A DNA stretch of 25,276 nt, from the IMG/VR virus record IMGVR_UViG_3300031993_006620. One strand, given 5' to 3'. This stretch comes from a virus. Taxonomy: Duplodnaviria; Heunggongvirae; Uroviricota; Caudoviricetes. Positions 165 to 16,721 of the stretch are shown here, piece by piece. Below the pieces are notes generated by a model that saw nothing but the letters and a program-made list of their open reading frames with translations, did not search any database and was not told the DNA's origin. Both the position numbers and the translations under genes were made by a program. Position 1 is the first letter of the stretch; each line of letters starts with the position of its first letter.

Positions 165-198
165 ATGTAGTACGGATGCCGGTTCAGGGGAGCCCCGG
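165..198 (-). promoter_or_regulatory. Repeated promoter-like element, copy 1
   Basis: CCGGGGCTCC-CCTGAACCGG-CAT-CCGTA-CTACAT. Confidence 0.8.
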
Positions 199-199
199 T

Positions 200-337
200 C
201 TAGAACATGCCGTAGCATTCCATACAGCAATGACCTTCGCTGTCGGTGCTTATGGTGGTGCCGCCGCAGTAGGGGCACTTGAGTTCGTCGGGTTTCTTCT
301 TGGTCGCCTTTTTGGGCTTGTCGTTTTTGGTCGCCAT
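200..337 (-). CDS. 45-aa basic zinc-ribbon protein (CPYC...CMEC)
   Basis: ATG 337 with AAAGGAG RBS behind copy 2; MATKNDKPKKATKKKPDELKCPYCGGTTISTDSEGHCCMECYGMF; the longer 200..673 ORF overlaps the next gene. Confidence 0.8.
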   Translation of the reverse strand: MATKNDKPKKATKKKPDELKCPYCGGTTISTDSEGHCCMECYGMF

Positions 338-354
338 GTCGGTTCTCCTTTGTT

Positions 355-388
355 GTATAGAGAGGATGGGCTCCCGGAGGAGCCCCGG
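355..388 (-). promoter_or_regulatory. Element copy 2
   Basis: CCGGGGCTCC-TCCGGGAGCC-CAT-CCTCT-CTATAC. Confidence 0.85.
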
Positions 389-390
389 CG

Positions 391-1005
391 TCACATCGGG
401 ATCACGTAGGTGTCCTTCGTGTCCGTGTCGGTCACCCTGACCTCGTTCACTTTGTAGCACGGGTCGCCCAGGCCGAAACGGAAAATATTCCCGAGCTTTG
501 CCATTATGTCGAAGTCGGTGTCGCGGTCGCGGTTGAAAAACCTTCCATGGCTGCAGACTTCGATGGTGCTGGCCATAGCGCTCACGACGAGCCTGTCGTT
601 TCCTTCCGAGACGGCCTTCTTGACCGTCTTGAACACGGCCAGCATCTTCGCCAGCGGCGTCGTCGTCTTGCACTTCACCTTCTTCGTGAACGGCTTGTAG
701 TAGTTCTCGACCTTGACGAGGAGCCGGACGTTGGAACCGCCGGACGTGGACAACTCGGACCGGCAGGAACGGCCTACCAGTTCCTTCCAGCGCGTGTCGA
801 TGTGGGCATGCGCCCTAAGTACGTTCTTGCGGATGTAGCCGTCGGCCGTCTTCGCCAACTTCTGGTCGAGCTGGACCACCACGACTCCGTTCTTGTAGAG
901 CGGGGTGGCGACAGGGTCGGCAGGCCCGTACTTCTTCACGAAGTCGAGCTGCAGTACCTTCTTCCCCAATTCGTTGAGGAGGTTGACATGTGCATCGGTA
1001 ATCAT
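391..1005 (-). CDS. Hypothetical protein, 204 aa
   Basis: ORF with AAGGAG 8 nt upstream, behind copy 3. Confidence 0.85.
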   Translation of the reverse strand: MITDAHVNLLNELGKKVLQLDFVKKYGPADPVATPLYKNGVVVVQLDQKLAKTADGYIRKNVLRAHAHIDTRWKELVGRSCRSELSTSGGSNVRLLVKVENYYKPFTKKVKCKTTTPLAKMLAVFKTVKKAVSEGNDRLVVSAMASTIEVCSHGRFFNRDRDTDFDIMAKLGNIFRFGLGDPCYKVNEVRVTDTDTKDTYVIPM

Positions 1006-1024
1006 TTTTCATTCTCCTTGGTTG

Positions 1025-1058
1025 GTACAGGATGGATGGGCTCCCGGAGGAACCCCGG
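1025..1058 (-). promoter_or_regulatory. Element copy 3
   Basis: CCGGGGTTCC-TCCGGGAGCC-CAT-CCATC-CTGTAC. Confidence 0.85.
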
Positions 1059-1060
1059 CA

Positions 1061-1453
1061 CTACACCTCGGACACCCGGTACACCTCGACGCAGTCCTCC
1101 TTGCCCGCAATGCAGATGTACAGGGCGGCGTTCCTGGTGTTGTTGGCTACGTAGTTGGCCACGTTGGAGGCGTAACGCACGAAATTCGCCATGCGCTCGT
1201 CGAAGGAGGCGGAAGGGTTGACGCAGGTCGGAATCCTCGCGAACTCTGCGGCCGGCTCCGTCTTGTAGCGGAACTTCGAGAAGTCGACGCTCGCCAGCAG
1301 CTTCATGGACTCCACGAGGGAGTCTCTGATGGTGTTCTGGTCCTTGTTGACCCCGCTTTCCACGGCGACGACCATCGGGGTGCATACTTCGAGCCGTTCG
1401 TTGTCCGACGCTCGCTGGTCGGTGCAGATTCTGGATGCGATAAGAATTTTCAT
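1061..1453 (-). CDS. Hypothetical protein, 130 aa
   Basis: ORF with GAGAGGA RBS; last gene of the 4-gene unit behind copy 4. Confidence 0.8.
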   Translation of the reverse strand: MKILIASRICTDQRASDNERLEVCTPMVVAVESGVNKDQNTIRDSLVESMKLLASVDFSKFRYKTEPAAEFARIPTCVNPSASFDERMANFVRYASNVANYVANNTRNAALYICIAGKEDCVEVYRVSEV

Positions 1454-1471
1454 TTTGTCCTCTCGGTTGGC

Positions 1472-1666
1472 TTACGATCGATCGTCGTTCCGGCGAAGCC
1501 CGGCCAGCCAGCGGTAGTGCGGGCGGTTGAACCACCCGTCGAAGTTGTGCGGGTATTCGTAGACGAGCCGGAGCCCGAAGGACTTGGCCACGCTGGCCAG
1601 ACGGGCGTCGAACATCCCGACCGATTCCCGTTTGGTCGGGACTATGAATTTCCGGCGCTTCTTCAT
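1472..1666 (-). CDS. Hypothetical basic protein, 64 aa
   Basis: Start re-assigned to ATG 1666, giving an ATGA overlap with the upstream stop; MKKRRKFIVPTKRES... Confidence 0.65.
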   Translation of the reverse strand: MKKRRKFIVPTKRESVGMFDARLASVAKSFGLRLVYEYPHNFDGWFNRPHYRWLAGLRRNDDRS

Positions 1667-1926
1667 GCTCTCGTGTCCATCGAAGCCCCGAGCCATATAG
1701 TTCGTATAAGCGCGGGAATGATAAGCAAGATATCGCACGTACGTGCGAAAATTTCCGTGTCCACCATGCCGACGCTGAGAATGAGGCCTGCGAAGGCGTA
1801 AAAGTCAATCACGAACAGGAGCATGCGGGCGGTCACGTTCCAGCGGATGGCTCGTCCCAGCAGCTCGACGGCGACGGGGAGCGCATAGGCGAGCACGAAC
1901 AGGACGAGTTCGATGTTTATTTTCAT
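1663..1926 (-). CDS. Small membrane protein, 87 aa, 2-3 hydrophobic segments
   Basis: MKINIELVLFVLAYALPVAVELLG...LLFVIDFYAFAGLILSVGMV...; start 2 nt after upstream stop, AAGGGG RBS. Confidence 0.75.
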   Translation of the reverse strand: MKINIELVLFVLAYALPVAVELLGRAIRWNVTARMLLFVIDFYAFAGLILSVGMVDTEIFARTCDILLIIPALIRTIWLGASMDTRA

Positions 1927-1928
1927 GG

Positions 1929-2246
1929 CTACCCCTTCTTCCAACAGTGTACCTTGTTGGACGAGTACGGGTGGAACGTGCCGTAGTTGCAGATGTAGAT
2001 GCCCTGCGGGTCACGGTCGACACGGTCGGACAGCTTGACCGTGCGGTGGGGTTCTTCCGGGTCGAGGGATGCGGCGACCATGTTGCCGTGGTCGTAGCGG
2101 ATTTCCATGAGCTCGTCGTTCGGGGTGTCGATGTGCTCCTTACCCATCGGGTCGATGTAGGGGAAGCTCACGAGGTCGCCCACGAGGATTGGCTTGCCGT
2201 CGAGGTCGACGAGGCCGGTGTCGGTGCCCTTGCTGATAGTGTTCAT
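1929..2246 (-). CDS. YopX-like phage protein, 105 aa
   Basis: TGLVDLDGKPILVGDLV matches the YopX motif TGLKDKNGKEIYEGDIV; RBS behind copy 4. Confidence 0.55.
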   Translation of the reverse strand: MNTISKGTDTGLVDLDGKPILVGDLVSFPYIDPMGKEHIDTPNDELMEIRYDHGNMVAASLDPEEPHRTVKLSDRVDRDPQGIYICNYGTFHPYSSNKVHCWKKG

Positions 2247-2265
2247 GTTAACTCCTTTTCGGTTG

Positions 2266-2299
2266 GTATAGTGGTGATGGGCCCCCCGGGGAGCCCCGG
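2266..2299 (-). promoter_or_regulatory. Element copy 4
   Basis: CCGGGGCTCC-CCGGGGGGCC-CAT-CACCA-CTATAC. Confidence 0.85.
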
Positions 2300-2303
2300 A
2301 CGA

Positions 2304-2411
2304 CTACTTTTCCTTCTTTGCTTTTTCTTCGTTGACAGGAACGTCGTTCTTGACCTTGAGGGTCTTCCCGTCGGCCACCATGAGCGGTGCACTGTAGGTC
2401 TTGGTTTCCAT
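2304..2411 (-). CDS. 35-aa small protein (not in ORF track)
   Basis: METKTYSAPLMVADGKTLKVKNDVPVNEEKAKRKK*; AAAGGAG RBS; fills the space between copies 5 and 4. Confidence 0.8.
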   Translation of the reverse strand: METKTYSAPLMVADGKTLKVKNDVPVNEEKAKKEK

Positions 2412-2431
2412 TGGTTGTCTCCTTTCGGTTG

Positions 2432-2465
2432 GTATAGTACGGATGGGGCTCCGGAGGAGCCCCGG
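2432..2465 (-). promoter_or_regulatory. Element copy 5
   Basis: CCGGGGCTCC-TCCGGAGCCC-CAT-CCGTA-CTATAC; directly abuts the upstream TAG. Confidence 0.85.
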
Positions 2466-2744
2466 CTATTCGACGTGAGTGCAGTACACCGTGTACTTGT
2501 CGCCGGGTTGCAGGCAGGCGTTTACCTTGACCGTGAGGACGAGCTTCCACTCCCCGTCTACCTTGGCGAAAATGTTGTACTGGGGCGGATGCTCGAGGTC
2601 GAGGAAAACCCGCTGGCACACGGTCTTTCGGCCGAACACTTCTCTGGCGACGTTGCCCACCTCGCACTCTATGTCGAGCTCGTCGACGGGCGTGCCGGTG
2701 GCCAGGGCAGTGTTGAGCTTGGATACGATGTTGATGTGTTCCAT
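2466..2744 (-). CDS. Hypothetical protein, 92 aa
   Basis: Start re-assigned to MEHINIV (AAGGAGTTAACA-ATG). Confidence 0.8.
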   Translation of the reverse strand: MEHINIVSKLNTALATGTPVDELDIECEVGNVAREVFGRKTVCQRVFLDLEHPPQYNIFAKVDGEWKLVLTVKVNACLQPGDKYTVYCTHVE

Positions 2745-2760
2745 TGTTAACTCCTTGTTG

Positions 2761-2794
2761 ACATAGTGTAGATAAGGTGTGTGGGTAACCCCGG
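2761..2794 (-). promoter_or_regulatory. Element copy 6 (degenerate)
   Basis: CCGGGGTTAC-CCACACACCT-TAT-CTACA-CTATGT; same spacing; abuts upstream TGA. Confidence 0.7.
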
Positions 2795-3052
2795 TCAGAA
2801 ACCGAGGGTTATCCACTTCCCGTATTTACCCGTTTCGGCCTTCAGCGGGGGCGTGCCTGTGGGCCCGCCGAACTTATGCAACGCATAGCTGCCCCCGCAG
2901 TTGTCGTCGACGTCAATCATGGCGTCGCCGTCACCGCGCTCCCTGAGCTCGCCGAGCGCCTCCCAGAGCTCGTCCACCGTCATGGTGGACCTCTCGTATT
3001 GCTCCCTGCGACGCGTGTCCTTCTCCTCTTCTGTCATTTCCGTAGTTGCCAT
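2795..3052 (-). CDS. Hypothetical acidic protein, 85 aa
   Basis: Start re-assigned to MATTEMT (AAAGGAGCTTAC-ATG). Confidence 0.8.
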   Translation of the reverse strand: MATTEMTEEEKDTRRREQYERSTMTVDELWEALGELRERGDGDAMIDVDDNCGGSYALHKFGGPTGTPPLKAETGKYGKWITLGF

Positions 3053-3069
3053 GTAAGCTCCTTTTCTCT

Positions 3070-3103
3070 TCATATAAAATATAGCACGCCGGAGGAGCCC
3101 CGG
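3070..3103 (-). promoter_or_regulatory. Element copy 7
   Basis: CCGGGGCTCC-TCCGGCGTGC-TAT-ATTTT-ATATGA; upstream box at 3112-3119. Confidence 0.8.
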
Positions 3104-3140
3104 ATACTGTCCGGCAGTGGCAATGCTCCCGCAATGCGGG

Positions 3141-3161
3141 AAAGCCGCCCCGTGGGGCGGC
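3141..3161 (-). terminator. Putative intrinsic terminator
   Basis: GCCGCCC-CACG-GGGCGGC followed by TTT on minus strand, 11 nt after the 3173 stop. Confidence 0.55.
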
Positions 3162-3172
3162 GCCGATCGATC

Positions 3173-3730
3173 TTACTTCTTCATATTGTCCTCCATGAAA
3201 AGGTCTAACGACAGCCTGAAATTTACAGGGATGCCGTCGAAGTGGAAAGAACGCCTCTTGGTGCAACGCGGAGAGGCGCCCCAGTAGATAAATTCTTCGC
3301 CCGCCTTGAACTTGTACGGCCCCGCCTCGAAATCATGCTTGACGGGGTAACGCTGGCCCACCACCAGGGTGTCGGCGAAGGCCTTGATGCGGTCCGCCTC
3401 CGCCTTCGCCTTGTCGCACCGGTCGAGCCATTCCTTGAGGTATCCGTCGGGGGTGAGGCCTCGGGCCTCGTATTCCTTCTTAATCCAGCGGGCAACGCCT
3501 TGGTTCAGCTCGTTCGGGCCAGCGCTCGCACTTACGGCTTTATACAATACAAAGCCTTCGTACTTGTGCATGAGAAGAACCAGGGCGCACGGAGTGTTGG
3601 ACTCCTTCCGGATGTACTTAATCCACGAACCGGTGATGCCGACCAGTTCGACCTTGTTCGGGTCGAGCCCCTTGGCATATTCCTTGATTTGTTCCTTTGT
3701 CGTGCGGATGTAGTCGCAGCTCCAGCCCAT
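3173..3730 (-). CDS. Hypothetical protein, 185 aa, possibly DUF6927-like
   Basis: MGW start and LYKAVSASAGP...EWLDRC pattern recall DUF6927; not verified. Confidence 0.6.
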   Translation of the reverse strand: MGWSCDYIRTTKEQIKEYAKGLDPNKVELVGITGSWIKYIRKESNTPCALVLLMHKYEGFVLYKAVSASAGPNELNQGVARWIKKEYEARGLTPDGYLKEWLDRCDKAKAEADRIKAFADTLVVGQRYPVKHDFEAGPYKFKAGEEFIYWGASPRCTKRRSFHFDGIPVNFRLSLDLFMEDNMKK

Positions 3731-3766
3731 TGTTAACTCCTTGTTGGTGGTGATGGTTGTTTCCTT

Positions 3767-3800
3767 GTATAGGAAAAATTGCCGGTCCGGGGAGGCCCGG
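3767..3800 (-). promoter_or_regulatory. Element copy 8
   Basis: CCGGGCCTCC-CCGGACCGGC-AAT-TTTTC-CTATAC. Confidence 0.8.
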
Positions 3801-3818
3801 TCCGGCGGGCTTGAACAT

Positions 3819-4244: not shown

Positions 4245-4264
4245 TTTAAACTCCTTTTTCCGTT

Positions 4265-4298
4265 GTATAGAAAAAATGACCCGGCCGAGGAGCCCCGG
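4265..4298 (-). promoter_or_regulatory. Element copy 9
   Basis: CCGGGGCTCC-TCGGCCGGGT-CAT-TTTTT-CTATAC. Confidence 0.85.
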
Positions 4299-4322
4299 CC
4301 GGGCAGAGCCATTTCCACCGGG

Positions 4323-5132: not shown

Positions 5133-5164
5133 TGGTTAACTCCTTTGTGGTTGGTTGTTTCGTT

Positions 5165-5198
5165 GTATAGTACGGATGGTCGCCCGGAGGAGCCCCGG
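5165..5198 (-). promoter_or_regulatory. Element copy 10
   Basis: CCGGGGCTCC-TCCGGGCGAC-CAT-CCGTA-CTATAC; upstream box CACTGTCG at 5207-5214. Confidence 0.85.
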
Positions 5199-5738: not shown

Positions 5739-5767
5739 GTTTTAACTCCTTTGTGGTTGGGTTCCTT

Positions 5768-5801
5768 GTACAGGAAATATCGGGGCTCCGGGGAGCCCCG
5801 G
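5768..5801 (-). promoter_or_regulatory. Element copy 11
   Basis: CCGGGGCTCC-CCGGAGCCCC-GAT-ATTTC-CTGTAC. Confidence 0.85.
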
Positions 5802-6372: not shown

Positions 6373-6388
6373 GTTTACCTCCTTTCTG

Positions 6389-6422
6389 ATGTAGGGTCGA
6401 TGGACGGGCAAAGGAGCCCCGG
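6389..6422 (-). promoter_or_regulatory. Element copy 12
   Basis: CCGGGGCTCC-TTTGCCCGTC-CAT-CGACC-CTACAT. Confidence 0.8.
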
Positions 6423-6515
6423 CGACGGCTGGGTAGTCGCCGCCCGGAGCTCCCCAAGGAACAACCCCCAGAAGGGGGATACGGAGTTAAGAAAATTATG
6501 CCACGGGCGATCGAT

Positions 6516-6950: not shown

Positions 6951-6974
6951 GTTTGGCTCCTTTGTTGTTTCCTT

Positions 6975-7008
6975 GTATAGGATGGATGGACGGCCGGAGG
7001 AGCCCCGG
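6975..7008 (-). promoter_or_regulatory. Element copy 13
   Basis: CCGGGGCTCC-TCCGGCCGTC-CAT-CCATC-CTATAC. Confidence 0.85.
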
Positions 7009-7024: not shown

Positions 7025-7507
7025 TTACACCTCCTCGAAGCTGCACTCCTCGACGTAGGCCGCTCCCTTCGACTTCGCGTCGGGTGCGAATAGATCGATC
7101 TGCTCGAACTTCACGCGGGCCTCCGCCTCGCTCACCGCGTCGATGTAGATTTCGGCGCGGAAAGTAATGCGGAACCGTTTGCCGTCGGGGTGGCCGTGCA
7201 GGCCGTCGACGACCTCGCCTCCCAGCAGTTCGGCCAGTTGTTCGGCCTTCTCGTCGTCGGGGAGCGATACATGTAAAAATGTCAGGACGTTCTCGCAACG
7301 GTCATAGGTAAGATGTTCCGTCGTCTTTATGGTGTATTCGGGGTCAATGCCGACCGCCTTCGCCGAGTCGAAAATTTCCGGGTCGTTGTCGTCCGGGTAG
7401 ATGCCCGCCAGGAACTTCTCGACCTTGGCGCGTGTCTCGCCGGACGGGACAAATTCCTCCGTGCGCAGGTCGTCCATGTCGAAACTTTCTTTTGTCTTCG
7501 TGTTCAT
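7025..7507 (-). CDS. Hypothetical acidic protein, 160 aa
   Basis: ORF with GAGGA RBS; C-terminal FRITFRAEIYIDAVSEAEARVKF weakly recalls DpnD/PcfM-type motifs. Confidence 0.8.
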   Translation of the reverse strand: MNTKTKESFDMDDLRTEEFVPSGETRAKVEKFLAGIYPDDNDPEIFDSAKAVGIDPEYTIKTTEHLTYDRCENVLTFLHVSLPDDEKAEQLAELLGGEVVDGLHGHPDGKRFRITFRAEIYIDAVSEAEARVKFEQIDLFAPDAKSKGAAYVEECSFEEV

Positions 7508-7524: not shown

Positions 7525-7560
7525 AAAAAAGATAAAGAAGGGGCGGGCGAGCCCGCCCCT
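7525..7560 (-). terminator. Intrinsic terminator after the DUF2958 gene
   Basis: AGGGGCGGG-CTCG-CCCGCCCCT followed by TCTTTATCTTTTTT. Confidence 0.75.
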
Positions 7561-7997: not shown

Positions 7998-8025
7998 TTT
8001 GTTAACTCCTTTCTGTTGTTTCCTT

Positions 8026-8059
8026 GTATAGTAAAGATGGGGGGCCAGAGGAGCCCCGG
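8026..8059 (-). promoter_or_regulatory. Element copy 14
   Basis: CCGGGGCTCC-TCTGGCCCCC-CAT-CTTTA-CTATAC. Confidence 0.85.
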
Positions 8060-8645: not shown

Positions 8646-8665
8646 TTTTAACTCCTTTTTTCGTT

Positions 8666-8699
8666 GTATAGGAAAGATGGGGGCCCCGAGGAGCCCCGG
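8666..8699 (-). promoter_or_regulatory. Element copy 15
   Basis: CCGGGGCTCC-TCGGGGCCCC-CAT-CTTTC-CTATAC. Confidence 0.85.
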
Positions 8700-8704: not shown

Positions 8705-9169
8705 CTACGGGAGCCCGATCACCCAGAACCGTTCCACGAGACCCGCCAGGGCGGGTTCCGCAGTGGCGTCTATCGCACGTGCCTGCGTATCGAACACGTC
8801 GTCCTCGTAGATAGTCTCGTCGTAATCCTGCTGAATGACCTCGCGCTCCAGCAACACAAGCCCGTCGTCGGGTATGCCGGCGAGCGCCTTGGTTATTTTT
8901 TCCATAAGCTCGCGCTTGGTCTGGCACGCGTTCAGCTTTTCGGCGAGCTCACAAAGTTCGTCGTACTTTTTATTCTTTTTGTTCGCATTGGTTTTATTTA
9001 GAAGTTCATTATATTTTTCAATGGGAGCGTTGTAGCAAGCGTCGCAGTTCGTCCTGCGGTACGGCTCGCTATTATTCTCGGGCGGGAGCCAGTGGCCGCA
9101 CACGGAGCACTCCCTGTGGCTATCCGGCACGCTCACCAGCTTCAAGTCGTAGGCGTCTACCCTGTACAT
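8705..9169 (-). CDS. C4 zinc-finger-containing hypothetical protein, 154 aa
   Basis: Start MYRVDAY (GGGAGG RBS); CSVC-x17-CDAC. Confidence 0.75.
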   Translation of the reverse strand: MYRVDAYDLKLVSVPDSHRECSVCGHWLPPENNSEPYRRTNCDACYNAPIEKYNELLNKTNANKKNKKYDELCELAEKLNACQTKRELMEKITKALAGIPDDGLVLLEREVIQQDYDETIYEDDVFDTQARAIDATAEPALAGLVERFWVIGLP

Positions 9170-9494: not shown

Positions 9495-9512
9495 TGTTTA
9501 ACTCCTTTCGTT

Positions 9513-9546
9513 GTATAGTACGTATGGTCTCCCGGAGGAACCCCGG
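9513..9546 (-). promoter_or_regulatory. Element copy 16
   Basis: CCGGGGTTCC-TCCGGGAGAC-CAT-ACGTA-CTATAC. Confidence 0.85.
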
Positions 9547-9580: not shown

Positions 9581-9603
9581 AAAAAACGGGGCACGCGGCC
9601 CCG
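9581..9603 (-). terminator. Intrinsic terminator
   Basis: CGGGGC-CGCGT-GCCCCG-TTTTTT. Confidence 0.7.
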
Positions 9604-9618
9604 CTCATGTTCACCCGA

Positions 9619-10035: not shown

Positions 10036-10052
10036 TTTCAACTCCTTTGGTT

Positions 10053-10086
10053 GTATAGAAAAAATGCGCCCGCAGGGAAGCCCCGG
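10053..10086 (-). promoter_or_regulatory. Element copy 17
   Basis: CCGGGGCTTC-CCTGCGGGCG-CAT-TTTTT-CTATAC. Confidence 0.85.
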
Positions 10087-10762: not shown

Positions 10763-10794
10763 TTCTTAACTCCTTTGTTGATTGTTCCTCGCTT

Positions 10795-10828
10795 GTATAG
10801 GGTTGATGCGTTCCCACGGGAGCCCCGG
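10795..10828 (-). promoter_or_regulatory. Element copy 18
   Basis: CCGGGGCTCC-CGTGGGAACG-CAT-CAACC-CTATAC. Confidence 0.85.
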
Positions 10829-10887: not shown

Positions 10888-10897
10888 CCCGCAGGAG

Positions 10898-11161
10898 TTA
10901 AGCAAATGTCTTCGGGGGCAGCTTGCCCGCCTTCTCGGCCTGCACACCGCTGTCGTACCACTTGCGGAGCTGCACAAGGCGCTCGGTCATCATATTCTGC
11001 ACGGCCGTCACCTTGTCAAAGTTCTGGCCGAACCCCGTGGGGGTCTGCCGTGTGCCCAGCTTCTCTTCAACCCTGTCGGCAAGCGCTTCAATGGATTTAA
11101 ATTTCTTGCGCAGGCGCACGTATCGGGGGTCTTTTTCGGCGTATTCGGCGAAAGAAATCAT
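10898..11161 (-). CDS. Hypothetical protein, 87 aa
   Basis: Start re-assigned to MISFAEY (AAAGGAGG RBS, 2 nt after the upstream TAA). Confidence 0.8.
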   Translation of the reverse strand: MISFAEYAEKDPRYVRLRKKFKSIEALADRVEEKLGTRQTPTGFGQNFDKVTAVQNMMTERLVQLRKWYDSGVQAEKAGKLPPKTFA

Positions 11162-11742: not shown

Positions 11743-11760
11743 CGCTTAGCTCCTTTCGTT

Positions 11761-11794
11761 GTATAGGATGGATGCGGGCCCGGAGGAGCCCCGG
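11761..11794 (-). promoter_or_regulatory. Element copy 19
   Basis: CCGGGGCTCC-TCCGGGCCCG-CAT-CCATC-CTATAC; upstream box CAATGCCG at 11803-11810. Confidence 0.85.
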
Positions 11795-12244: not shown

Positions 12245-12261
12245 GCTTACTCCTTTGGTTG

Positions 12262-12295
12262 GTACAGGAGGAATGGGCTCCCGGAGGAGCCCCGG
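12262..12295 (-). promoter_or_regulatory. Element copy 20
   Basis: CCGGGGCTCC-TCCGGGAGCC-CAT-TCCTC-CTGTAC. Confidence 0.85.
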
Positions 12296-12313
12296 ACGCG
12301 CCAGGGGATCGGC

Positions 12314-12367
12314 CTACCCGCTGACGCGCTTCTTGGTGGGCTTGTAGATTCGTTGATGTTTCGCCAT
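12314..12367 (-). CDS. Possible 17-aa basic peptide
   Basis: TAA-T-ATG coupling to the 12369 gene; MAKHQRIYKPTKKRVSG*; ends 18 nt before copy 20. Confidence 0.4.
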   Translation of the reverse strand: MAKHQRIYKPTKKRVSG

Positions 12368-12368
12368 A

Positions 12369-12575
12369 TTACTTGAAGTCGCTCCACGTTCTGGCCGGTG
12401 CGAGGTCGTCCGGGATGGTGAGGCCGTGCTTCTTCATCTGTTCCATCATTGCGGGAGCGTCGTCGGGGCTCTCGGCAATCACGAGGCGCAAAAGATTTTC
12501 TGCCGTGCGCTGGTTCTTGGGGACCCATTTGTCCCAGCTGTTCACTTTCAGCAGTTGGGAAAGTTTCGGATTCAT
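12369..12575 (-). CDS. Hypothetical protein, 68 aa
   Basis: ORF with AAAGGAG RBS. Confidence 0.8.
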   Translation of the reverse strand: MNPKLSQLLKVNSWDKWVPKNQRTAENLLRLVIAESPDDAPAMMEQMKKHGLTIPDDLAPARTWSDFK

Positions 12576-12608
12576 AATTTAAAATTCTCCTTTCGGTAAA
12601 ATGTTGTA

Positions 12609-12887
12609 CTACTGCCCGAGTCCTTCTTCGGAACACGGGTGAACGTCGTCGGCGTCGCCGAAATCTTTTATGAGCCTGCCGTACTCGTCAAACCAGTCGG
12701 GGTGCTTCGGAGACCACGGCTTGTTGGCCTGCACGTCGCACAGCAGGTGCGCTATGCGCTCGGGGTGGGCGAGGTTGTACTGCCTGTAGTACCCCTTGCG
12801 GTGGCGGTCCTTGCGGCCCGTGCGCTTGGCGTAGTCCTTGTAGTAGCCAGGCCGGTGCCTGTCCTTCTTCTTGGTCGGCACTCCCAT
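12609..12887 (-). CDS. Basic hypothetical protein, 92 aa, with an internal KDRHRxGYY repeat
   Basis: GGAGG RBS, start 1 nt after the upstream TAG. Confidence 0.75.
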   Translation of the reverse strand: MGVPTKKKDRHRPGYYKDYAKRTGRKDRHRKGYYRQYNLAHPERIAHLLCDVQANKPWSPKHPDWFDEYGRLIKDFGDADDVHPCSEEGLGQ

Positions 12888-12888
12888 G

Positions 12889-13083
12889 CTAGGCGGCCTC
12901 CACCTTGATGTGGTCGCCGAACATCACGTGGCACGTGTTCTGGTCGTAGTCGCCCTCAAGCACCAGCAGCTCCTCGAGTTCGACCTTGGTGATGTCGACG
13001 GGGAGGCGGCGACGGGTCTTCGTGACCTTGCGGTTGGCGCAATCCATCACGACGACGTCAAATTCCTTGGTTTCCTTGGACAT
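12889..13083 (-). CDS. Hypothetical protein, 64 aa
   Basis: AAGGAGTTAAGCC-ATG behind copy 21. Confidence 0.85.
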   Translation of the reverse strand: MSKETKEFDVVVMDCANRKVTKTRRRLPVDITKVELEELLVLEGDYDQNTCHVMFGDHIKVEAA

Positions 13084-13115
13084 GGCTTAACTCCTTGTTG
13101 GTTGTCCGTTTCCTT

Positions 13116-13149
13116 GTATATTAATGATGCGGCCCGAGCGGAACCCCGG
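13116..13149 (-). promoter_or_regulatory. Element copy 21
   Basis: CCGGGGTTCC-GCTCGGGCCG-CAT-CATTA-ATATAC; upstream box at 13158-13165. Confidence 0.85.
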
Positions 13150-13238
13150 ACTGTCCACGGCAGTGGCCCAGCCCCGAGCCACCGAAACAGGGCCCGCAGA
13201 TCGATCCGCGGGCCCATCGGAGTAAGCAAAAATCTTGG

Positions 13239-13262
13239 AAGGGGGAGCGCCACGGCTCCCCC
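13239..13262 (-). terminator. Terminator (near-duplicate of 13447-13468)
   Basis: 8-bp stem GGGGGAGC/GCTCCCCC followed by TT. Confidence 0.6.
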
Positions 13263-13268
13263 TAGGAG

Positions 13269-13427
13269 TTAAGCAAAAATCTTCTGAATGTAGCTCGTGA
13301 CGCACCACGTCACGCAAACAATCCCGACAAAGCTCAGCAACACGGCGAAGGCCTTGCCCTTGATATACTTGGCCGTGATTACGAAACCCACGACGACGCA
13401 AAGCAAAAGTTTAATTGAAAAAAACAT
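13269..13427 (-). CDS. 52-aa two-helix membrane protein (not in ORF track)
   Basis: AGGGGG RBS; MFFSIKLLLCVVVGFVITAKYIKGKAFAVLLSFVGIVCVTWCVTSYIQKIFA*. Confidence 0.75.
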   Translation of the reverse strand: MFFSIKLLLCVVVGFVITAKYIKGKAFAVLLSFVGIVCVTWCVTSYIQKIFA

Positions 13428-13442
13428 TTGAACCCCCTAGGG

Positions 13443-13468
13443 AAAGGGGGGAGCCTCACGGCTCCCCC
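13443..13468 (-). terminator. Terminator after ardC
   Basis: GGGGGAGCC-GTGA-GGCTCCCCC-C-TTT. Confidence 0.7.
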
Positions 13469-13478
13469 GTTTTCGGAT

Positions 13479-14450
13479 TTATTTTTTCGCCTTGCCGTGG
13501 TAGATGTACTCCACGGCCGCCATAGCTCCGGCCATTGCCTTCTCTATCAAGAGCGGGTCGCTCTTCAGCGCCTTGCCCCAGCTCTGAATGTAGGCCACGT
13601 GGTTCCTGTCGGTCGTGTTGACCGCCAGCCCGTTCTCGTGAAGCAACACCGCAGAAGCGATTTCCGCTATGAGTTCCTCACGGGAGTAGCGTTCGTCGCC
13701 CTTGACGAAAAATTTCGGGCGGTGCAGGCGCTTGGAGTGACCCGTGGAGTGAGCCATCTCGTGGAAGCAAGCCTGATAGTAGGCGGGCTCGGAAACAAAG
13801 TTTTCTATGCTCGGCACGTTGATGCGGTCGGTCGCAGGGTGATAGAACGCCCTGCCCTGCATCTCGTGGCCGAACCCGACCCCCTCTCGGGAAACGTAGT
13901 CGAGAACAATCTTTTCGGCTCTCGGTATGGGGTTAGCCACACGCAGGGTCTTGTCAAAAGTTTTTTCGGGAATGTTCCTCGGGCAGTCAACCTCGGTGCC
14001 GATGCGGTACACCTTGTGACTCTTCAGGCACCAATATTCCACAAGCTCGGGGTTGCCGTCCTTGTCCTTGACGACGTTGCCGTTCTCGTCACGGCGCTTG
14101 CCCAGCACCTTGCCCCTGAAGACGATATAAGTGCCCTCGGGGAACTTGCCGTCCTTGCGGATGAACCGATTCCACACGCACGCCTCGCCCTCGCCATTGC
14201 GGCTGGTGCCGGTGCGCTTAATCACCTGGTCGACCGTCACGAACTCGCCCGCCTGTTGGCCTCCGAGCCACAGAAGGAGAGAGTTCAGGAACCCGTAGGG
14301 CTTGCCCGACGCTCCGTAGTAGTCGCTCTCACGCTTGAGCCAAGGCTGTTCCCAAGGGATGACACGCCTGTCAAGCGCCTCCAAAAATTTTTCCGTGATT
14401 TCAACGCCTATCCTGCGCTCCACTTCACGGCAAGTAAGTCTTTTTTCCAT
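13479..14450 (-). CDS. ardC: ArdC-family ssDNA-binding antirestriction protein (ArdC-N/DUF1738 + zincin-like MPTase domain), 323 aa
   Basis: IPWEQPW, GKPYGFLNSLLL, AFYHPATDRINVP, FHEMAHSTGH (HExxH), YSREELIAEIASAVL. Confidence 0.9.
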   Translation of the reverse strand: MEKRLTCREVERRIGVEITEKFLEALDRRVIPWEQPWLKRESDYYGASGKPYGFLNSLLLWLGGQQAGEFVTVDQVIKRTGTSRNGEGEACVWNRFIRKDGKFPEGTYIVFRGKVLGKRRDENGNVVKDKDGNPELVEYWCLKSHKVYRIGTEVDCPRNIPEKTFDKTLRVANPIPRAEKIVLDYVSREGVGFGHEMQGRAFYHPATDRINVPSIENFVSEPAYYQACFHEMAHSTGHSKRLHRPKFFVKGDERYSREELIAEIASAVLLHENGLAVNTTDRNHVAYIQSWGKALKSDPLLIEKAMAGAMAAVEYIYHGKAKK

Positions 14451-14485
14451 TTGCTTGACTCCTTTCCGTAAGGCACCATCGCCTT

Positions 14486-14519
14486 ACACATTATTTATCC
14501 CGCCCCCGAGGAAACCCGG
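14486..14519 (-). promoter_or_regulatory. Element copy 22 (class II)
   Basis: CCGGGTTTCC-TCGGGGGCGG-GAT-AAATA-ATGTGT then AAGGCGAT; upstream box at 14528-14535. Confidence 0.75.
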
Positions 14520-14604
14520 CCACGGGCCGGCAGTGCCGAACCCTGGGAGGGACGGCAAAGGCCGTCCGTTGCCCCCTCGGGGTCGGGGGTCGGACGGCTA
14601 GGCC

Positions 14605-14928
14605 TTAGGCCTGCGCCCCAGCGTGGAGGCGCTTGTACTCCTCGGTGAGCTCCGCCATCCTCACGTGCTCGCATTCGTCCTCGGTCGTCACCTTCAGCAC
14701 GCCCTTGATGGCGGCGATGACGACCTTGCCGAGACGGACACGGGTCACGAGAGCCGTGTTCAGGTCGTGGTCGTTACGGCAGTCGTAGAACACCTTACCG
14801 CGTTCGTCCACGAAGAGACGGGAGAGGAACGGCCCGTGGGGGCGCTTCTTGGACTCCCAGTCCGCACGTGCCTGCTTCAACAGGGTCTCCCTGTTGGCGA
14901 ACAGGACTTGCAAAAACTTGTTTTTCAT
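14605..14928 (-). CDS. Hypothetical protein, 107 aa
   Basis: Start re-assigned to MKNKFLQ (AAAGGAGTCAAGCAA-ATG, same RBS as ardC). Confidence 0.85.
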   Translation of the reverse strand: MKNKFLQVLFANRETLLKQARADWESKKRPHGPFLSRLFVDERGKVFYDCRNDHDLNTALVTRVRLGKVVIAAIKGVLKVTTEDECEHVRMAELTEEYKRLHAGAQA

Positions 14929-14961
14929 TTGCTTGACTCCTTTGCGAGGCCTCATCGCCTC

Positions 14962-14995
14962 ACACACACCCGATGGGGGCGCGGAGGAGCCCCGG
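14962..14995 (-). promoter_or_regulatory. Element copy 23 (class II)
   Basis: CCGGGGCTCC-TCCGCGCCCC-CAT-CGGGT-GTGTGT then GAGGCGAT; upstream box at 15004-15011. Confidence 0.8.
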
Positions 14996-15160
14996 CCACC
15001 GTCCGGCAGTGACAGGCCGGGGGACGGCCACGAACCGCCCACGCAGGGCACGAAAAAGAAACCCCCACACCAACACGGCATAGGCACAAAACGAGCCCAC
15101 GGGCTACGGGAACCGCAAAAAACGGCATCCACGGGCGCCATAGGGAGCTTAAAAAAGAAT

Positions 15161-15272
15161 AACCGCCCTAGGCGGTTACAGAACGAAAAAAACGCCATAG
15201 GGCGCACGAACGGAAAAAACCGCCCTAGGCGGTTACAGAACAAAAAACGCCATAGGGCGCACGAACGGAAAA
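15161..15272. repeat. Two tandem ~56-bp direct repeats built from hairpins and A-tracts
   Basis: Units 15161-15217 and 15218-15272: AACCGCC-CTA-GGCGGTT ACAGAAC(G)AAAAAA(A) CGCC-ATAG-GGCG CACGAACGGAAAA. Confidence 0.9.
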
Positions 15273-15301
15273 AGCCCCAAAACAAAAGTTTTGGAGCAAA
15301 T

Positions 15302-15324
15302 AAAAAAGGGGGCTTGCGCCCCCT
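15302..15324 (-). terminator. Intrinsic terminator
   Basis: AGGGGGC-GCAA-GCCCCCT-TTTTT. Confidence 0.75.
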
Positions 15325-15341
15325 GCCGTTGGTAGGTTTCC

Positions 15342-16208
15342 CTACTTCCCGACCCGTTCTTCAAATTCGGCCTTTTTCTGCAACAGCCACGCCATATCAA
15401 CGGGGCGGTTCAACAAAATTTGGTCGGTGATGTTGTGTTCCTTGATGTACACACGGCAATTCGAGAGGTTGATGCGCTGGAACGGGGGGAGAGGAATTTC
15501 TTTCGGTACGAGATTGCCGTCGGCATCCTTCTCAAAAATAATATCCCCGTTGTCGTCACGTGCAGGGAGCATCACCTTCTTTTTCTTGGGCACGGGCTTG
15601 CCGTCCTTGCCAAGAATCTGATTCCCTTCAGCATCCGTCTCAAAAATCATTTTTCCGTCGCTGGTGAACACGGGAACCATCACGCCCACGGCCGACTTCT
15701 TGACTTCTTCACCGCTCCAACGCTTGAAATCGTCGGACGGAGCCCACTGGGCGAAGGCGTACTTGTCGATTTCCGTGCCGTTTGCAAGAAAATATTTCGG
15801 GTCGGACGTGTCGCTCCGGCGGTACACGGCGATAGCGTAGTCCGTCAGGTCGTTCTTGCAGTACAGGAAATCCTTGAAGATGGGGAAGTAACCCGTGTTG
15901 CGCTGGTCGGGCTCGTAGCTTTCCACAATGCCCTTGTTTCCGGCACGGCCGATGGCGTTCATCACGCACCGCTTGTAGTCCATAGAACCGCCAAGCTGGA
16001 TGGCGTAGGTGTTGCTCTTGTAGACGTCGCCAAGGGTGCAGGGGTCGCCAACGGGGGCAACGTAGAGCCCGTGTTCGGCAATCTTGCCAGCAAGGACAGC
16101 GTTCGCAAGCCTCGCCTTTTGGACAAGTTTGACCTTTCCGCAGTATTCAAGACGGGCGAACGAAGAATAGAACTTCTCCAAGAACGCCGTGTTAATGGCT
16201 TTCAACAT
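15342..16208 (-). CDS. Hypothetical phage protein, 288 aa
   Basis: AAAGGAGTTAAGCT-ATG behind copy 24; C-terminal charged segment with repeated D-x-x-G-N/K turns. Confidence 0.85.
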   Translation of the reverse strand: MLKAINTAFLEKFYSSFARLEYCGKVKLVQKARLANAVLAGKIAEHGLYVAPVGDPCTLGDVYKSNTYAIQLGGSMDYKRCVMNAIGRAGNKGIVESYEPDQRNTGYFPIFKDFLYCKNDLTDYAIAVYRRSDTSDPKYFLANGTEIDKYAFAQWAPSDDFKRWSGEEVKKSAVGVMVPVFTSDGKMIFETDAEGNQILGKDGKPVPKKKKVMLPARDDNGDIIFEKDADGNLVPKEIPLPPFQRINLSNCRVYIKEHNITDQILLNRPVDMAWLLQKKAEFEERVGK

Positions 16209-16273
16209 AGCTTAACTCCTTTGAGAGGGGTGGAACCTTACCGCCACCCGTTCGGTGCTCGGCCTTTCGCCTT

Positions 16274-16307
16274 ACACACATCCGATGGGGGCGCTGAGGA
16301 GCCCCGG
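16274..16307 (-). promoter_or_regulatory. Element copy 24 (class II)
   Basis: CCGGGGCTCC-TCAGCGCCCC-CAT-CGGAT-GTGTGT then AAGGCGAA; upstream box at 16316-16323. Confidence 0.8.
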
Positions 16308-16340
16308 CAACGGGCCGGCAGTGGCACAGGCCGGAAGGGC

Positions 16341-16370
16341 AAAAATATACGGCGGGAAACCGCCGTATAT
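16341..16370 (-). terminator. Intrinsic terminator
   Basis: Perfect 11-bp stem ATATACGGCGG-TTTC-CCGCCGTATAT followed by TTTT. Confidence 0.75.
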
Positions 16371-16393
16371 GCCCAAATGTCCATTACAAGCGC

Positions 16394-16549
16394 CTAACCT
16401 TTACGCGACGTGCGGATGGCGGAAATCTTCACCGCCATTTGGGGCTTTATGCCGCTGCGCAGGCACCTGAAGTACCTGTCTGCATCCAGCTCCTTGGCTC
16501 CGTTCGCCACGAGGTCGTCGAAGAACTTGTCAATGTCACACGTTGCTAT
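16394..16549 (-). CDS. 51-aa protein with an apparent ATA start (not in ORF track)
   Basis: Element, then GGAGTTGACT-ATA, then (M)ATCDIDKFFDDLVANGAKELDADRYFRCLRSGIKPQMAVKISAIRTSRKG*, then terminator. Confidence 0.55.
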   Translation of the reverse strand: MATCDIDKFFDDLVANGAKELDADRYFRCLRSGIKPQMAVKISAIRTSRKG

Positions 16550-16582
16550 AGTCAACTCCGATGCGAGGGGGTTGTGTCCTCA

Positions 16583-16616
16583 CGTCCATCCCGATGCCGA
16601 CCCGGAGGAACCCCGG
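16583..16616 (-). promoter_or_regulatory. Element copy 25 (most upstream, variant 3' part)
   Basis: CCGGGGTTCC-TCCGGGTCGG-CAT-CGGGA-TGGACG then TGAGGA; upstream box CACTACCG at 16625-16632. Confidence 0.75.
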
Positions 16617-16721
16617 ACCCGGATCGGTAGTGGCCGAAACCGCCGTAGGGCACATTCGGGCACCTTTTTCTGGTGGGGGTTTACGCTCGCGGCCGGTGGC
16701 CAGGCGGGCCGGCTCCGGCAA

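Follow-up and report, generated by a model that had tools for sequence, protein, structure and literature searches.

At the end of the 308-kb contig of a very large uncultivated phage, small genes in a long, rapidly shuffling block of uncharacterised genes are headed by copies of an element of about 50 bases (its length may also be given as about 35-55 nt), in which a hairpin is joined to a promoter-like signal. These copies are probably composite attenuator-promoter cassettes of the PeSL/PmSL design that are reshuffled and are read by host core RNA polymerase together with a phage factor. The PeSL design consists of a stop codon, a -35 element, a stem-loop located mostly between the -35 and -10 elements, the -10 element itself, an SD sequence and an ATG; both terminator and promoter activity have been shown for it, and recombination between copies has been demonstrated (PMC2839356, PMC4122927). 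The cassettes described here share the layout of the PeSL/PmSL elements known from T4-type phages, whereas their promoter half is lineage-specific and not of the sigma70 type, with boxes that match no known polymerase or sigma specificity.

The window (the whole stretch of DNA analysed, 25,276 nt) carries a cassette array on its minus strand, with 25 strong or variant copies, one weak copy and about 32 small genes. The initial annotation had listed 25 copies by their right edges, and every one of these edges bears the element on the minus strand. The extent then given, 165-16632, holds for those 25 copies, but the array continues past window position 1 to the contig end. A PWM scan of the whole 308-kb contig placed 41 copies scoring 20 bits or more on the genome plus strand at 281,380-307,708 (the last 27 kb, reaching the contig end) and found no strong copies outside 281-308 kb. 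All strong copies are intergenic and lie on one strand. As had been noted, the genes at 17-25 kb of the window are free of copies; the single weak partial match there, near 19101, is inside a gene and lacks CCGGG and the AT. The upstream bound of the array is a non-coding region of about 450 bp (16620-17078), in which four 11-bp repeats, C-rich repeats and an A/T block are found.

In the window, 23 sites match the core CCGGGNYTCC-N11-AT exactly, all on the minus strand, compared with 0.04 ± 0.2 expected from 100 dinucleotide shuffles. The core is exact in 23 of the 25 listed copies, and the other two each carry one core mismatch: copy 6 (2759-2794; TTAC; 25.7 bits) and copy 17 (10051-10086; CTTC, with a T-run after it; 40.9 bits). 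The motif holds about 36 bits of information. A22 and T23 are retained in all 72 non-redundant copies collected from this genome and a close relative, which agrees with the earlier claim of invariance, although the figure is partly circular because the copies were chosen with a PWM that includes positions 22 and 23. Positions 31 and 33 are purines in every copy, each preceded by T.

Each cassette runs from an upstream stop codon through an optional true terminator and an A-N-T-S-C-C box to CCGGG-NN-TCC-YC, and then through a partly complementary right arm, A22-T23, a pyrimidine-rich 5-mer, C-T-R-T-R-C and a short A/C-rich leader to a strong RBS and the ATG. The first base of the motif (C1) lies 0-24 nt past the upstream stop codon in 13 copies and about 70 nt past it otherwise. 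The RBS starts at position 40-44 in 50 of the 72 copies and at position 36 at the earliest; leader and RBS are both strongly conserved. The first reading of the element had left out the upstream ACTGCC box, which the same annotation recorded in a separate entry.

Approximately 24 of about 32 genes have a copy of their own and eight ride second or third in their units, which tempers the original statement that the element heads nearly every gene. A strong RBS generally follows just downstream, as had also been stated, with the exception of the most upstream copy. This degenerate copy 25 (16581-16616; 12.3 bits) retains CCGGGGTTCC..CAT but is without CTRTAC and without a clear RBS or gene. Copies 24, 23 and 22 belong to a variant class. 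The first of these (16272-16307; 34.3 bits) has a TGTGTAAGGCG leader, is preceded by an ACTGCC box and heads a 288-aa gene at 15342-16208; copy 23 (14960-14995; 32.4 bits) heads the gene at 14605-14928, and copy 22 (14484-14519; 30.8 bits) heads an ArdC-like gene at 13479-14450. ArdC is indeed the only assignable product, and 19 of 20 further proteins tested have no PHROG hit; the early timing and the anti-host arsenal proposed for these genes are guesses.

Copy 21 (13114-13149; 38.7 bits) heads a unit of three genes (12889-13083, 12609-12887 and 12369-12575). The upstream stop codon is 5 nt 5' of C1 in copy 15 (8664-8699; 50.6 bits), 4 nt 5' of C1 in copy 14 (8024-8059; 50.6 bits), and adjoins C1 in copy 6 and in copy 5 (2430-2465; 46.5 bits). 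In copy 2 (353-388; 48.4 bits), the RBS GGAG occupies positions 41-44, just 6 nt past CTATAC. Further copies are 19 (11759-11794; 49.7 bits), 18 (10793-10828; 37.9 bits), 13 (6973-7008; 47.4 bits), 10 (5163-5198; 48.7 bits), 4 (2264-2299; 41.8 bits), 3 (1023-1058; 45.8 bits) and 1 (163-198; 36.6 bits). The weak 26th copy (1468-1503; one mismatch; 16.7 bits), absent from the first list, heads the gene at 1061-1453.

Long spacers within the array contain strong GC hairpins followed by T-runs. Separate intrinsic-terminator-like hairpins with T-runs, again on the minus strand, are found at 16349-16363 upstream of copy 24 and, in canonical form, at 9584-9606 upstream of copy 16 (9511-9546; 45.7 bits), and a similar hairpin with a T-rich tail lies at 6465-6478 upstream of copy 12 (6387-6422; a CTACAT variant; 32.5 bits). 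The first array gene and copy 23 are separated by a non-coding 'terminator wall' (15064-15324) of about eight successive GC hairpins, each with a T-run after it. Because several copies directly follow bona fide intrinsic terminators, the genes downstream of them need re-initiation. Promoters of sigma70 consensus occur in the array at chance level (5 versus 4.2).

The hairpin half of the element was missed in the first reading, which took the N10 spacer to vary freely. Instead, the spacer sequence is skewed towards pairing with the left box: the mean MFE is -11.5 kcal/mol compared with -9.1 kcal/mol when the right arm is shuffled (p = 8e-8). All 72 and all 29 copies in the two copy sets form a hairpin, which averages about 8 bp. 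Its loop, the conserved TCCYC, covers positions 11-12 in every copy. In 46 of the 72 and 16 of the 29 copies the hairpin has its 3' end at position 20-21, so that it usually closes immediately 5' of the invariant AT. The left arm is conserved and the right arm is variable yet pairing: left-arm variants CCGGGCC and CCGGGTC have right arms that match accordingly, as in copy 8 (3765-3800; CCGGGCC; 36.2 bits). Copy 20 (12260-12295; 43.4 bits) forms a Class I hairpin, GGGCTCC/GGGAGCC; perfect 8-bp hairpins are found in copy 11 (5766-5801; 41.2 bits) and, with a 3-nt loop, in copy 5. The U-tract 3' of the hairpin is weak in this genome (mean of 3.7 T in 9 nt). Copy 9 (4263-4298; 42.1 bits) looks terminator-like because its 11-pair hairpin is followed by TTTTTT.

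From this anatomy we infer promoter activity, a start site and attenuation as follows. A new transcript would begin at each unit from the element acting as a promoter. The predicted start site is the purine at position 33, inside CTRTAC, which would place Y21-A22-T23 at -12/-11/-10 as half of a -10 element, CCGGG..TCC at -32 to -23, the location of a MotA-type box or of an unusual -35, and the upstream box at -47 to -42. When RNA reads through from the upstream gene, the hairpin and its pyrimidine- or U-rich tail would serve as an attenuator or weak terminator. CTATAC is more likely the start-site region than a -10 box because it is too near the RBS; with a sigma70-type -10 at 29-34, transcription would begin within the RBS or beyond it.

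A start at position 33 is favoured by the leader hairpins of variant copies, which begin exactly there in both lineages (among them copy 23 and copy 22, the latter with GTAAGGC/GCCTTAC). It is also favoured by the hybrid copy 7 (3068-3103; 30.6 bits), which has a CCGGGGCTCC box and, in place of CAT..CTATAC, an extended -10 native to this genome, TGCTATATT, whose TATATT occupies precisely positions 21-26. However, the -10-like element is no more than Y-A-T, and T occurs at position 26 (the -7 equivalent) in just 28 of 72 copies, unlike sigma-A -10 boxes. In addition, the best-conserved block (positions 1-12) would sit at -32 to -21, which overlaps only in part with the stretch read by sigma region 4, and 14 bp, not 17, would separate it from the -10-like element. 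The location of the conserved TCCYC in the loop could instead mean that a folded nucleic acid is recognised.

The promoter proposed in the initial annotation therefore survives in part: the element behaves like a lineage-specific, non-sigma70 promoter that heads independent units (co-oriented, intergenic, RBS-adjacent and post-terminator), but the virion polymerase suggested as its reader is unsupported. The reading factor is the weakest step of our explanation. We infer that host core RNA polymerase is redirected by a phage factor, which may be the single sigma70-family protein (G000 154,897-155,709) or an activator that would bind the CCGGG..TCC box. The search for sigma genes called for earlier found one sigma70-family gene, with regions 2 and 4, in each phage, and its DNA-reading regions are invariant across three lineages. 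Host polymerase with a phage factor is favoured over a virion polymerase because of this one sigma per phage and because neither this genome nor a 93%-complete relative has a recognisable RNA polymerase, whether single-subunit or multisubunit. A second phage-specific signal, TATAAACT-R-CGG, precedes about 50 core genes and could equally be the target of the sole sigma, which would leave the array motif without an identified reader.

It is unlikely that the element is the promoter of a dedicated phage RNA polymerase, possibly virion-borne, that reads an extruded DNA hairpin as the N4 virion polymerase does and starts at or beside A22/T23. The information content and rigid geometry of the motif would suit such an enzyme, as would its conserved loop and left arm combined with a right arm that need only pair, since N4 promoters likewise have only some stem and loop bases fixed (PMC4496689). 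With the N4 geometry, in which the loop centre is at -11, +1 would coincide with the invariant AT at 22-23. Six ORFs of 1,362-2,198 aa are without a detectable family, the 308-kb genome is estimated to be 81% complete, and the array lies at the contig end both here and in a distant relative, G001. However, neither this genome nor the 93%-complete relative contains a T7/N4-type or two-barrel polymerase domain, and no large ORF has a catalytic DxDGD-type motif in a plausible context. Such a polymerase would also leave CTRTAC, the position-33 leader hairpins and the hybrid TATATT unexplained. Furthermore, N4 has three such promoters, with 5-7 bp stems and 3-nt loops, compared with about 100 here, with stems of about 8 bp and loops of 3-5 nt.

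Less plausible is that the element is not a promoter, and that long array transcripts carry the hairpin as a 3' stabiliser or as a processing site cut at the AU past the stem, with CUAUAC-AAC and the RBS forming a standard translation leader. The strongly conserved leader and RBS are consistent with this arrangement, as is the closing of the hairpin just 5' of the invariant AU; a GC hairpin followed by AU is reminiscent of the sites at which Cas6e and other hairpin-specific endoribonucleases cut. No CRISPR repeat or Cas1 was found in the DNA examined, and the element has no Rfam match. Long read-through transcripts are unlikely because independent intrinsic terminators, including the eightfold wall, precede many copies. 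Moreover, an invariant left arm with a drifting right arm fits a purely structural RNA signal poorly, and the conserved ANTSCC box lies in DNA outside any plausible RNA motif.

More doubtful again is a promoter for an alternative sigma of the host, rather than for a phage factor. The layout in two boxes, with its invariant A in a -11-like position, does fit sigma70-family promoter logic. However, the motif is not known to fit the sigma54, sigma32, sigma28 or ECF consensus sequences. When one genome per species was scanned for the exact pattern across 185,579 prokaryote species, 14 scattered single matches turned up and none of the genomes had two; metagenome and other viral contigs gave no multiple copies apart from the phage's own relatives. 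These counts make a host sigma less likely, although so strict a pattern would miss degenerate host promoters.

The close relative, which is 96-98% identical, has at least 65 copies in 53 kb, and G001, whose sigma is 72% identical, has about 30 with the same geometry. Between the two lineages, orthologous cassette proteins are 28-69% identical, and whole orthologous promoter regions are 55% identical compared with 66% for coding DNA. CCGGG, TCC, AT and CTATAC nevertheless hold their positions, and because they are kept despite this divergence, the consensus positions are held by selection and are not leftovers of recent copying.

The copies are also break points of cassette shuffling, a role that the first reading overlooked. 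The close relative carries additional cassettes, each with its own copy, and gene order in G001 is scrambled relative to this genome. Where cassettes are gained, lost or reshuffled, the breaks are at the motif or close to it: about 8 of the roughly 12 points at which homology between this genome and the close relative breaks off fall 18-73 nt past C1. It is highly improbable that the element is mainly a site-specific recombination site of the integron attC type with secondary expression signals, even though a co-oriented array in which every small ORFan cassette has a single imperfect hairpin repeat, and cassettes gained, lost and reordered between relatives, recall such a system. No tyrosine recombinase domain was found in the 308-kb genome, the paired R''/L''-L'/R' core organisation of attC is absent, the element is continuous with the downstream gene's RBS instead of trailing a promoterless cassette, and the break points scatter over about 55 nt with no single position. 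As composite attenuator-promoter cassettes, the roughly 100 near-identical copies would instead provide patches of homology, and recombination between them would gain, lose and reshuffle the ORFan cassettes.

The repeated element that heads the genes of the array is real, strongly non-random and selectively maintained. When printed in register, the 25 sites listed in the initial annotation form an unmistakable repeat. Its core, CCGGGNYTCC-N11-AT, is matched exactly at 23 sites, none of them on the plus strand (shuffles give 0.04 ± 0.2), and each of the two other listed sites carries a single mismatch. That annotation also proposed a whole-contig matrix scan. The window is the reverse strand of positions 272,411-297,686 in a 308,245-bp IMG/VR virus record (hereafter G000), such that the window minus strand is the genome plus strand. 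A weight matrix derived from these sites identifies 41 strong copies (at least 20 bits) in this record, all on one strand and all within 281,380-307,708. Three weaker copies exist beside them, and neither the other 280 kb nor the opposite strand holds anything comparable. Because matches are restricted to this interval, the array extends from about window position 16,600 through position 1 to the contig end, and all copies are confined to one 27-kb block.

Every copy is intergenic. A ribosome binding site (RBS) and start codon follow 50-100 nt after the first C of the core (position 1) in 24 of the 25 listed copies, and after 50-70 nt in 23 of them. The earlier claim that each copy precedes an RBS and the first gene of a unit therefore holds with one exception, and eight genes are the second or third in their unit. 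Thirteen copies begin 0-24 nt after the upstream stop codon, and nine copies in the window begin about 60-93 nt after it (69-73 nt for seven of the nine). A literature search found no paper for the box sequence, and no Rfam family matches in the window.

The record is linear and 81% complete by CheckV, and is assigned to a huge tailed phage because it encodes a tail sheath, tail fibres and a family-B-like DNA polymerase. The array ORFs behave as coding sequence, and their differences from a close relative are distributed 45/47/91 by codon position. Most of the encoded proteins are unfamiliar. No PHROG match was obtained for 19 of the 20 cassette proteins tested, the first array protein (288 aa) has no match in the ESM Atlas, and Pfam assigns ArdC only. 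The sole PHROG match among these 20 is a weak one to endonuclease VII (E = 1.7e-4), for a 154-aa cassette protein at window 8,705-9,169 (minus strand). The window contains no tRNA genes.

In the databases searched, the signal is specific to one small phage lineage, because multiple copies occur only in G000 and two relatives. No other IMG/VR contig contains the exact composite pattern, and a search of one genome per species from 185,579 prokaryote species yields just 14 scattered single matches. Among JGI metagenome contigs, many copies are present in one only, the 78.7-kb JAEEGH010001140.1, which is 88-98% identical to G000 across homologous parts. Across the 53 kb examined, this close relative carries 65 or more copies, including stretches and cassettes without a counterpart in G000. 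Use of the phage sigma factor as a query led to a more distant, 355-kb and 93%-complete relative (G001), whose sigma factor is 72% identical. The last 17 kb of G001 contains approximately 30 co-oriented copies of CCGGG-YN-TCCCC-N9-TAT-N5-CTATAC-AAG, which share with the G000 copies an upstream A-C-T-G-N-C box and the RBS. As in G000, the array of G001 continues past the end of its contig. A looser pattern applied to 2.9 million viral contigs finds multiple copies in the G001 contig alone. One cassette gene, L059, has a homologue in another phage, where it resides in an ordinary context without the motif.

Among 72 non-redundant copies, the nucleotides C1, C2, G3, G4, G5, T8, C9, C10, C12, G14, A22, T23, T30, T32 and A36 are invariant or nearly so, and positions 31 and 33 are purines in every copy. 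About two thirds of the copies also carry an upstream box, A-N-T-S-C-C, at positions -14 to -9. The conserved sequence amounts to approximately 36 bits, and its positions are spread across more than 50 nt, separated by gaps of variable length. The 16 cassette proteins common to G000 and G001 are only 28-69% identical and are encoded in scrambled order, and orthologous promoter regions taken whole are only 55% identical, whereas the adjacent coding DNA reaches 66%. Even so, the consensus positions are kept between the two phages, and it is selection, rather than recent copying alone, that maintains them.

Huge phages possess large blocks of uncharacterized accessory genes and, to our knowledge, little has been learned about how such blocks are expressed and how they turn over. 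A single rigid signal that is found at each unit across 27 kb or more (53 kb or more in the close relative), and that is kept across a divergence where the proteins have fallen to such low identities, offers a clean handle on both. As an annotation aid, a motif scan shows where genes start and how far the hyperplastic region extends.

The spacer within the element was initially described as varying freely, but it proves to be one arm of a hairpin. Positions 13-21 are biased toward pairing with the conserved left box, and the mean minimum free energy is -11.5 kcal/mol, whereas shuffling of the right arm alone gives -9.1 kcal/mol (p = 8e-8). Upon folding, a helix of approximately 8 bp with its loop over positions 11-12 is obtained for all 72 of the non-redundant copies and for all 29 copies from the distant relative. 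It ends at position 20 or 21, immediately before A22-T23, in 46 of the 72 and 16 of the 29 copies, respectively. Left-arm variants (CCGGGCC and CCGGGTC) are paired with matching right arms. The tail that follows the stem is pyrimidine-rich and only sometimes includes a true T-run. At window 10,895-10,915, 13,440-13,460 and 6,480-6,500 (minus strand), the complement of the array's RBS consensus, such as TTTGCTTAACTCC, lies just past the stop codons of several units. It may base-pair with RBS segments of the RNA, or it may be left over from a cassette start that was inverted.

Several features of the array are consistent with a promoter function for the element. In the spacers of about 60-93 nt that precede nine copies, a strong GC hairpin and its T-rich tail lie ahead of an ACTGCC box. 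The first array gene is separated from the copy that follows it by a 260-bp non-coding run (window 15,064-15,324, minus strand), a 'terminator wall' of about eight GC hairpins, each with a T-run, in which a 55-bp unit is present twice. Genes located 3ʹ of such terminator-like hairpins would need a new transcription start, and the only conserved feature ahead of them is the motif. Sites matching the sigma70 consensus occur in the array at chance frequency (5 versus 4.2 expected). The motif itself, CCGGGGCTCC..AT..CTRTAC, lacks TTGACA/TATAAT and TGCTT, and promoters of the sigma-A type (TTGACA-N17-TATAAT or the extended -10 TGnTATAAT) are absent from it with the exception of one hybrid copy, named 3103 for its plus-strand right edge. 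The initial assignment of a non-sigma70 character is thus upheld outside this copy. A further strong terminator-like hairpin resides inside a two-gene unit (window 7,539-7,560, minus strand), directly ahead of a gene at 7,025-7,507 that has neither a motif copy nor an obvious promoter.

The start site can be predicted from the internal register of the element. The RBS start falls within positions 40-44 for 50 of the 72 copies, and at position 36 in the earliest case. The CTATAC/CTRTAC box (positions 29-34) was considered as a -10 element of the sigma70 type. The RBS follows it by 6-10 nt (2 nt in one copy), and position 31, where the essential A at -11 would be needed, is G in 32 of the 72 copies. 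Transcription would then start near position 41, inside or beyond the RBS, and so we rejected this assignment. The ACTGCC box likewise fails as a -35 element, since a 17-bp spacer would place the -10 element on CYCNGN. Transcription probably begins instead at the purine of position 33, as three observations suggest. First, in hybrid copy 3103 the phage's own extended -10 sequence, TGCTATATT, replaces CAT..CTATAC such that TATATT falls exactly on positions 21-26, which would make A22 the A at -11. Second, variant copies at the array head in both lineages have a leader hairpin whose first paired base is position 33, which is where a 5ʹ-terminal stabilizing stem would begin. Third, A/T-rich sequence is confined within the element to positions 22-35, where T32-R33 provides a pyrimidine-purine step. 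With a start at position 33, Y21-A22-T23 would correspond to the upstream half of a -10 element, with CCGGG..TCC at -32 to -23 and the upstream box at -47 to -42.

The element was initially proposed to be read by a phage-encoded RNA polymerase, possibly packaged in the virion, by a sigma factor or by an activator. Searches for these genes favour the latter two. G000 and G001 each encode exactly one protein of the sigma70 family, which has regions 2 and 4 (154,897-155,709 in G000). In contrast, Pfam domains for beta', beta and T7-like polymerases were detected neither in G000 nor in the 93%-complete G001, although the search for the T7-like domain (PF00940) had no positive control. We therefore favour a reader composed of the host core polymerase and a phage-encoded specificity factor, either the sigma factor or a MotA-like activator that binds the box. 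Covariation between sigma factor and motif is uninformative on this point because the DNA-reading segments of the protein are identical in the three lineages compared. The single sigma factor may instead serve a second promoter class, typified by TATAAACT.

Six G000 ORFs of 1,362-2,198 aa belong to no family (15,692-19,954; 27,919-32,175; 69,883-74,574; 90,575-96,559; 183,098-189,694; 194,423-198,511) and have no Pfam or PHROG match. Those at 69,883-74,574, 90,575-96,559 and 183,098-189,694 have no meaningful match among PDB sequences, and the one giant ORF tried against the ESM Atlas gave nothing. A regular-expression search for a hidden polymerase with a DxDGD-type motif produced only matches that sit in implausible acidic contexts.

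Whether the boxes represent a specificity that has not been described before was considered separately, and we regard this reading as possible but rather unlikely. It includes two options: a phage sigma factor or a MotA-like 'appropriator' that uses CCGGG-NN-TCC together with a minimal YAT -10 element, or an unrecognized polymerase or factor that might read the extruded hairpin by its conserved TCCYC loop. If this reading were true, approximately 100 single-gene cassettes, perhaps a fifth of a genome of more than 350 kb, would be switched on by such a reader, and the element would also drive cassette turnover. Several familiar specificities were rejected. For a sigma32-like CCCCATnT, the CCC before AT is part of the hairpin arm and is absent in G001 (GGYTAT). 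The consensus sequences for sigma54 (GG-N10-GC), ECF factors and sigma28 do not fit by eye.

The closest precedents for this architecture are the PeSL cassettes of T4-type phages, in which a stop codon is followed by a -35 element, a stem-loop mostly between -35 and -10, the -10 element, a Shine-Dalgarno (SD) sequence and ATG (PMC2839356, PMC4122927). The stem-loop functions as a terminator or attenuator, and in the PmSL variant a Mot box takes the place of the -35 element (PMC2839356, PMC4122927). Such cassettes are known from RB49/phi1, T4/PST and KVP40/nt-1, and PeSLs are enriched beside ORFans in hyperplastic regions, where recombination between copies generates indels and mini-circles (PMC2839356, PMC4122927). 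The present element similarly occupies approximately 50-60 bp of intergenic sequence from the upstream stop codon to the next SD and ATG, and combines a GC stem-loop with a predicted promoter, mostly between two boxes. Its copies are densely packed, share one orientation and accompany small ORFans of a hyperplastic region, and indels or replacements in close relatives break at the elements. It thus matches every architectural and evolutionary feature of PeSLs tested, except for promoter type. The boxes are not sigma70-like as in PeSLs, nor do they provide the TGCTT Mot box and good -10 element of PmSLs, and this sets the element apart from members of both groups. In addition, its conserved sequence is far longer and more rigid, the system is larger in copy number, block length and share of the genome, and the carrier is a huge (>300 kb) uncultivated phage rather than a T4-type phage. 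T4-type phages thus provide a precedent for the design, but not for the specificity or the scale. Once found, the reader would carry over from T4-type to huge phages the PeSL concept of regulatory cassettes that also act as hot spots of recombination, would reveal how a huge phage without a recognized polymerase of its own times an arsenal of accessory genes, and would supply a new orthogonal promoter/factor pair for synthetic biology.

T4 middle promoters consist of a MotA box at -30 and a sigma70 -10 element, and depend on sigma appropriation by MotA and AsiA. With a start at position 33, CCGGG..TCC would similarly take the place of a -35 element at about the MotA distance from the -10 element (10-13 bp), and both systems place a phage-specific promoter class ahead of many genes. 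However, the -10-like part of the element is just Y-A-T, without T at -7, the box sequence is unrelated, and no MotA or AsiA homologue came to light in searches directed at other families.

The three promoters for the N4 virion polymerase, a protein encoded by a 3,500-aa polymerase gene, have a 5-7-bp stem and a 3-nt loop centred at -11, and their conservation is limited to -17 to +1 (PMC4496689). The element resembles them in its small GC hairpin with a conserved loop, in its partly conserved stem whose remaining bases need only pair, and in the conserved bases directly after the stem. It differs in having approximately 100 copies with stems of ~8 bp and loops of 3-5 nt, an extra conserved CTRTAC box 7-12 nt past AT, and no detectable polymerase.

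The resemblance to the SPO1 terminal redundancy and the T5 pre-early region, noted initially, lies in a terminal gene block: numerous small genes whose functions are unknown are grouped there, and a strong repeated promoter (predicted in the present case) stands before each of them. The SPO1 and T5 promoters, however, are of the host sigma-A type. Promoters of the T7 type, with ~23 contiguous bp from -17 to +6, are not matched by gapped positions spread over more than 50 nt, and the corresponding polymerase gene was not found.

Cassette shuffling at or near the element is evident from the relatives. About 8 of the approximately 12 real homology break points between G000 and the close relative fall 18-73 nt past a motif start. 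In the close relative, one additional cassette of 315 bp carries a duplicated copy of its own and long runs of different cassettes are present, and the distant relative carries shared cassettes in a different order. Integron attC sites offer a parallel in their co-oriented small ORFan cassettes, separated by imperfect hairpin repeats, and in cassette content that varies among relatives. However, the repeat described here carries the expression signals of the next gene and, as read from the sequence, lacks the R''/L''-L'/R' organization of attC core sites, and G000 has no tyrosine recombinase (PF00589) that could represent an integrase. Cas6-type RNA processing was also considered. The hairpin-then-AU layout resembles that of type I-E CRISPR repeats, and CACTGCCG resembles type I-F repeats; Cas1 and a CRISPR array are absent from G000 and from the pieces of the relative examined.

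Two other signals are over-represented in the genome. An extended -10 element of the sigma-A type (tTGCTATATTt) is over-represented genome-wide in G000 on both strands, and TTGCAT-N17-TATATT, also of this type, precedes the phage sigma gene at 154,897. The second signal, TATAAACT-R-CGG, also written ttATAAACT(A/G)CGG, has no -35-like box and is located 25-35 nt before the ATG of approximately 50 core genes spread over 2-260 kb, including those for tail sheath, tail fibre and replication (examples at 173,060/173,084; 127,834/127,867; 90,508/90,542). It often occurs in back-to-back divergent pairs, and by analogy looks like a promoter class of the T4-late type.

A divergent pair of extended -10 promoters, a type with about 30 other sites genome-wide, is present at window 23,271-23,303 (G000 274,384-274,416), and one of the two heads an operon of DUF5758 genes that precedes the array. 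Four tandem paralogous genes of 400-435 aa, each with a C-terminal DUF5758 domain (window 17,079-22,434, minus strand), adjoin the upstream side of the array. Three of them score above the Pfam cut-off and that at 17,079-18,386 just below it; all four lack the motif. The non-coding stretch that heads the array (window 16,620-17,078) contains four exact 11-bp repeats, GGTCTGGCATG, at 16,722-16,768, together with degenerate C-rich repeats, an A/T block and a small palindrome, and could serve as an origin, as a pac site or as a binding region for a regulator.
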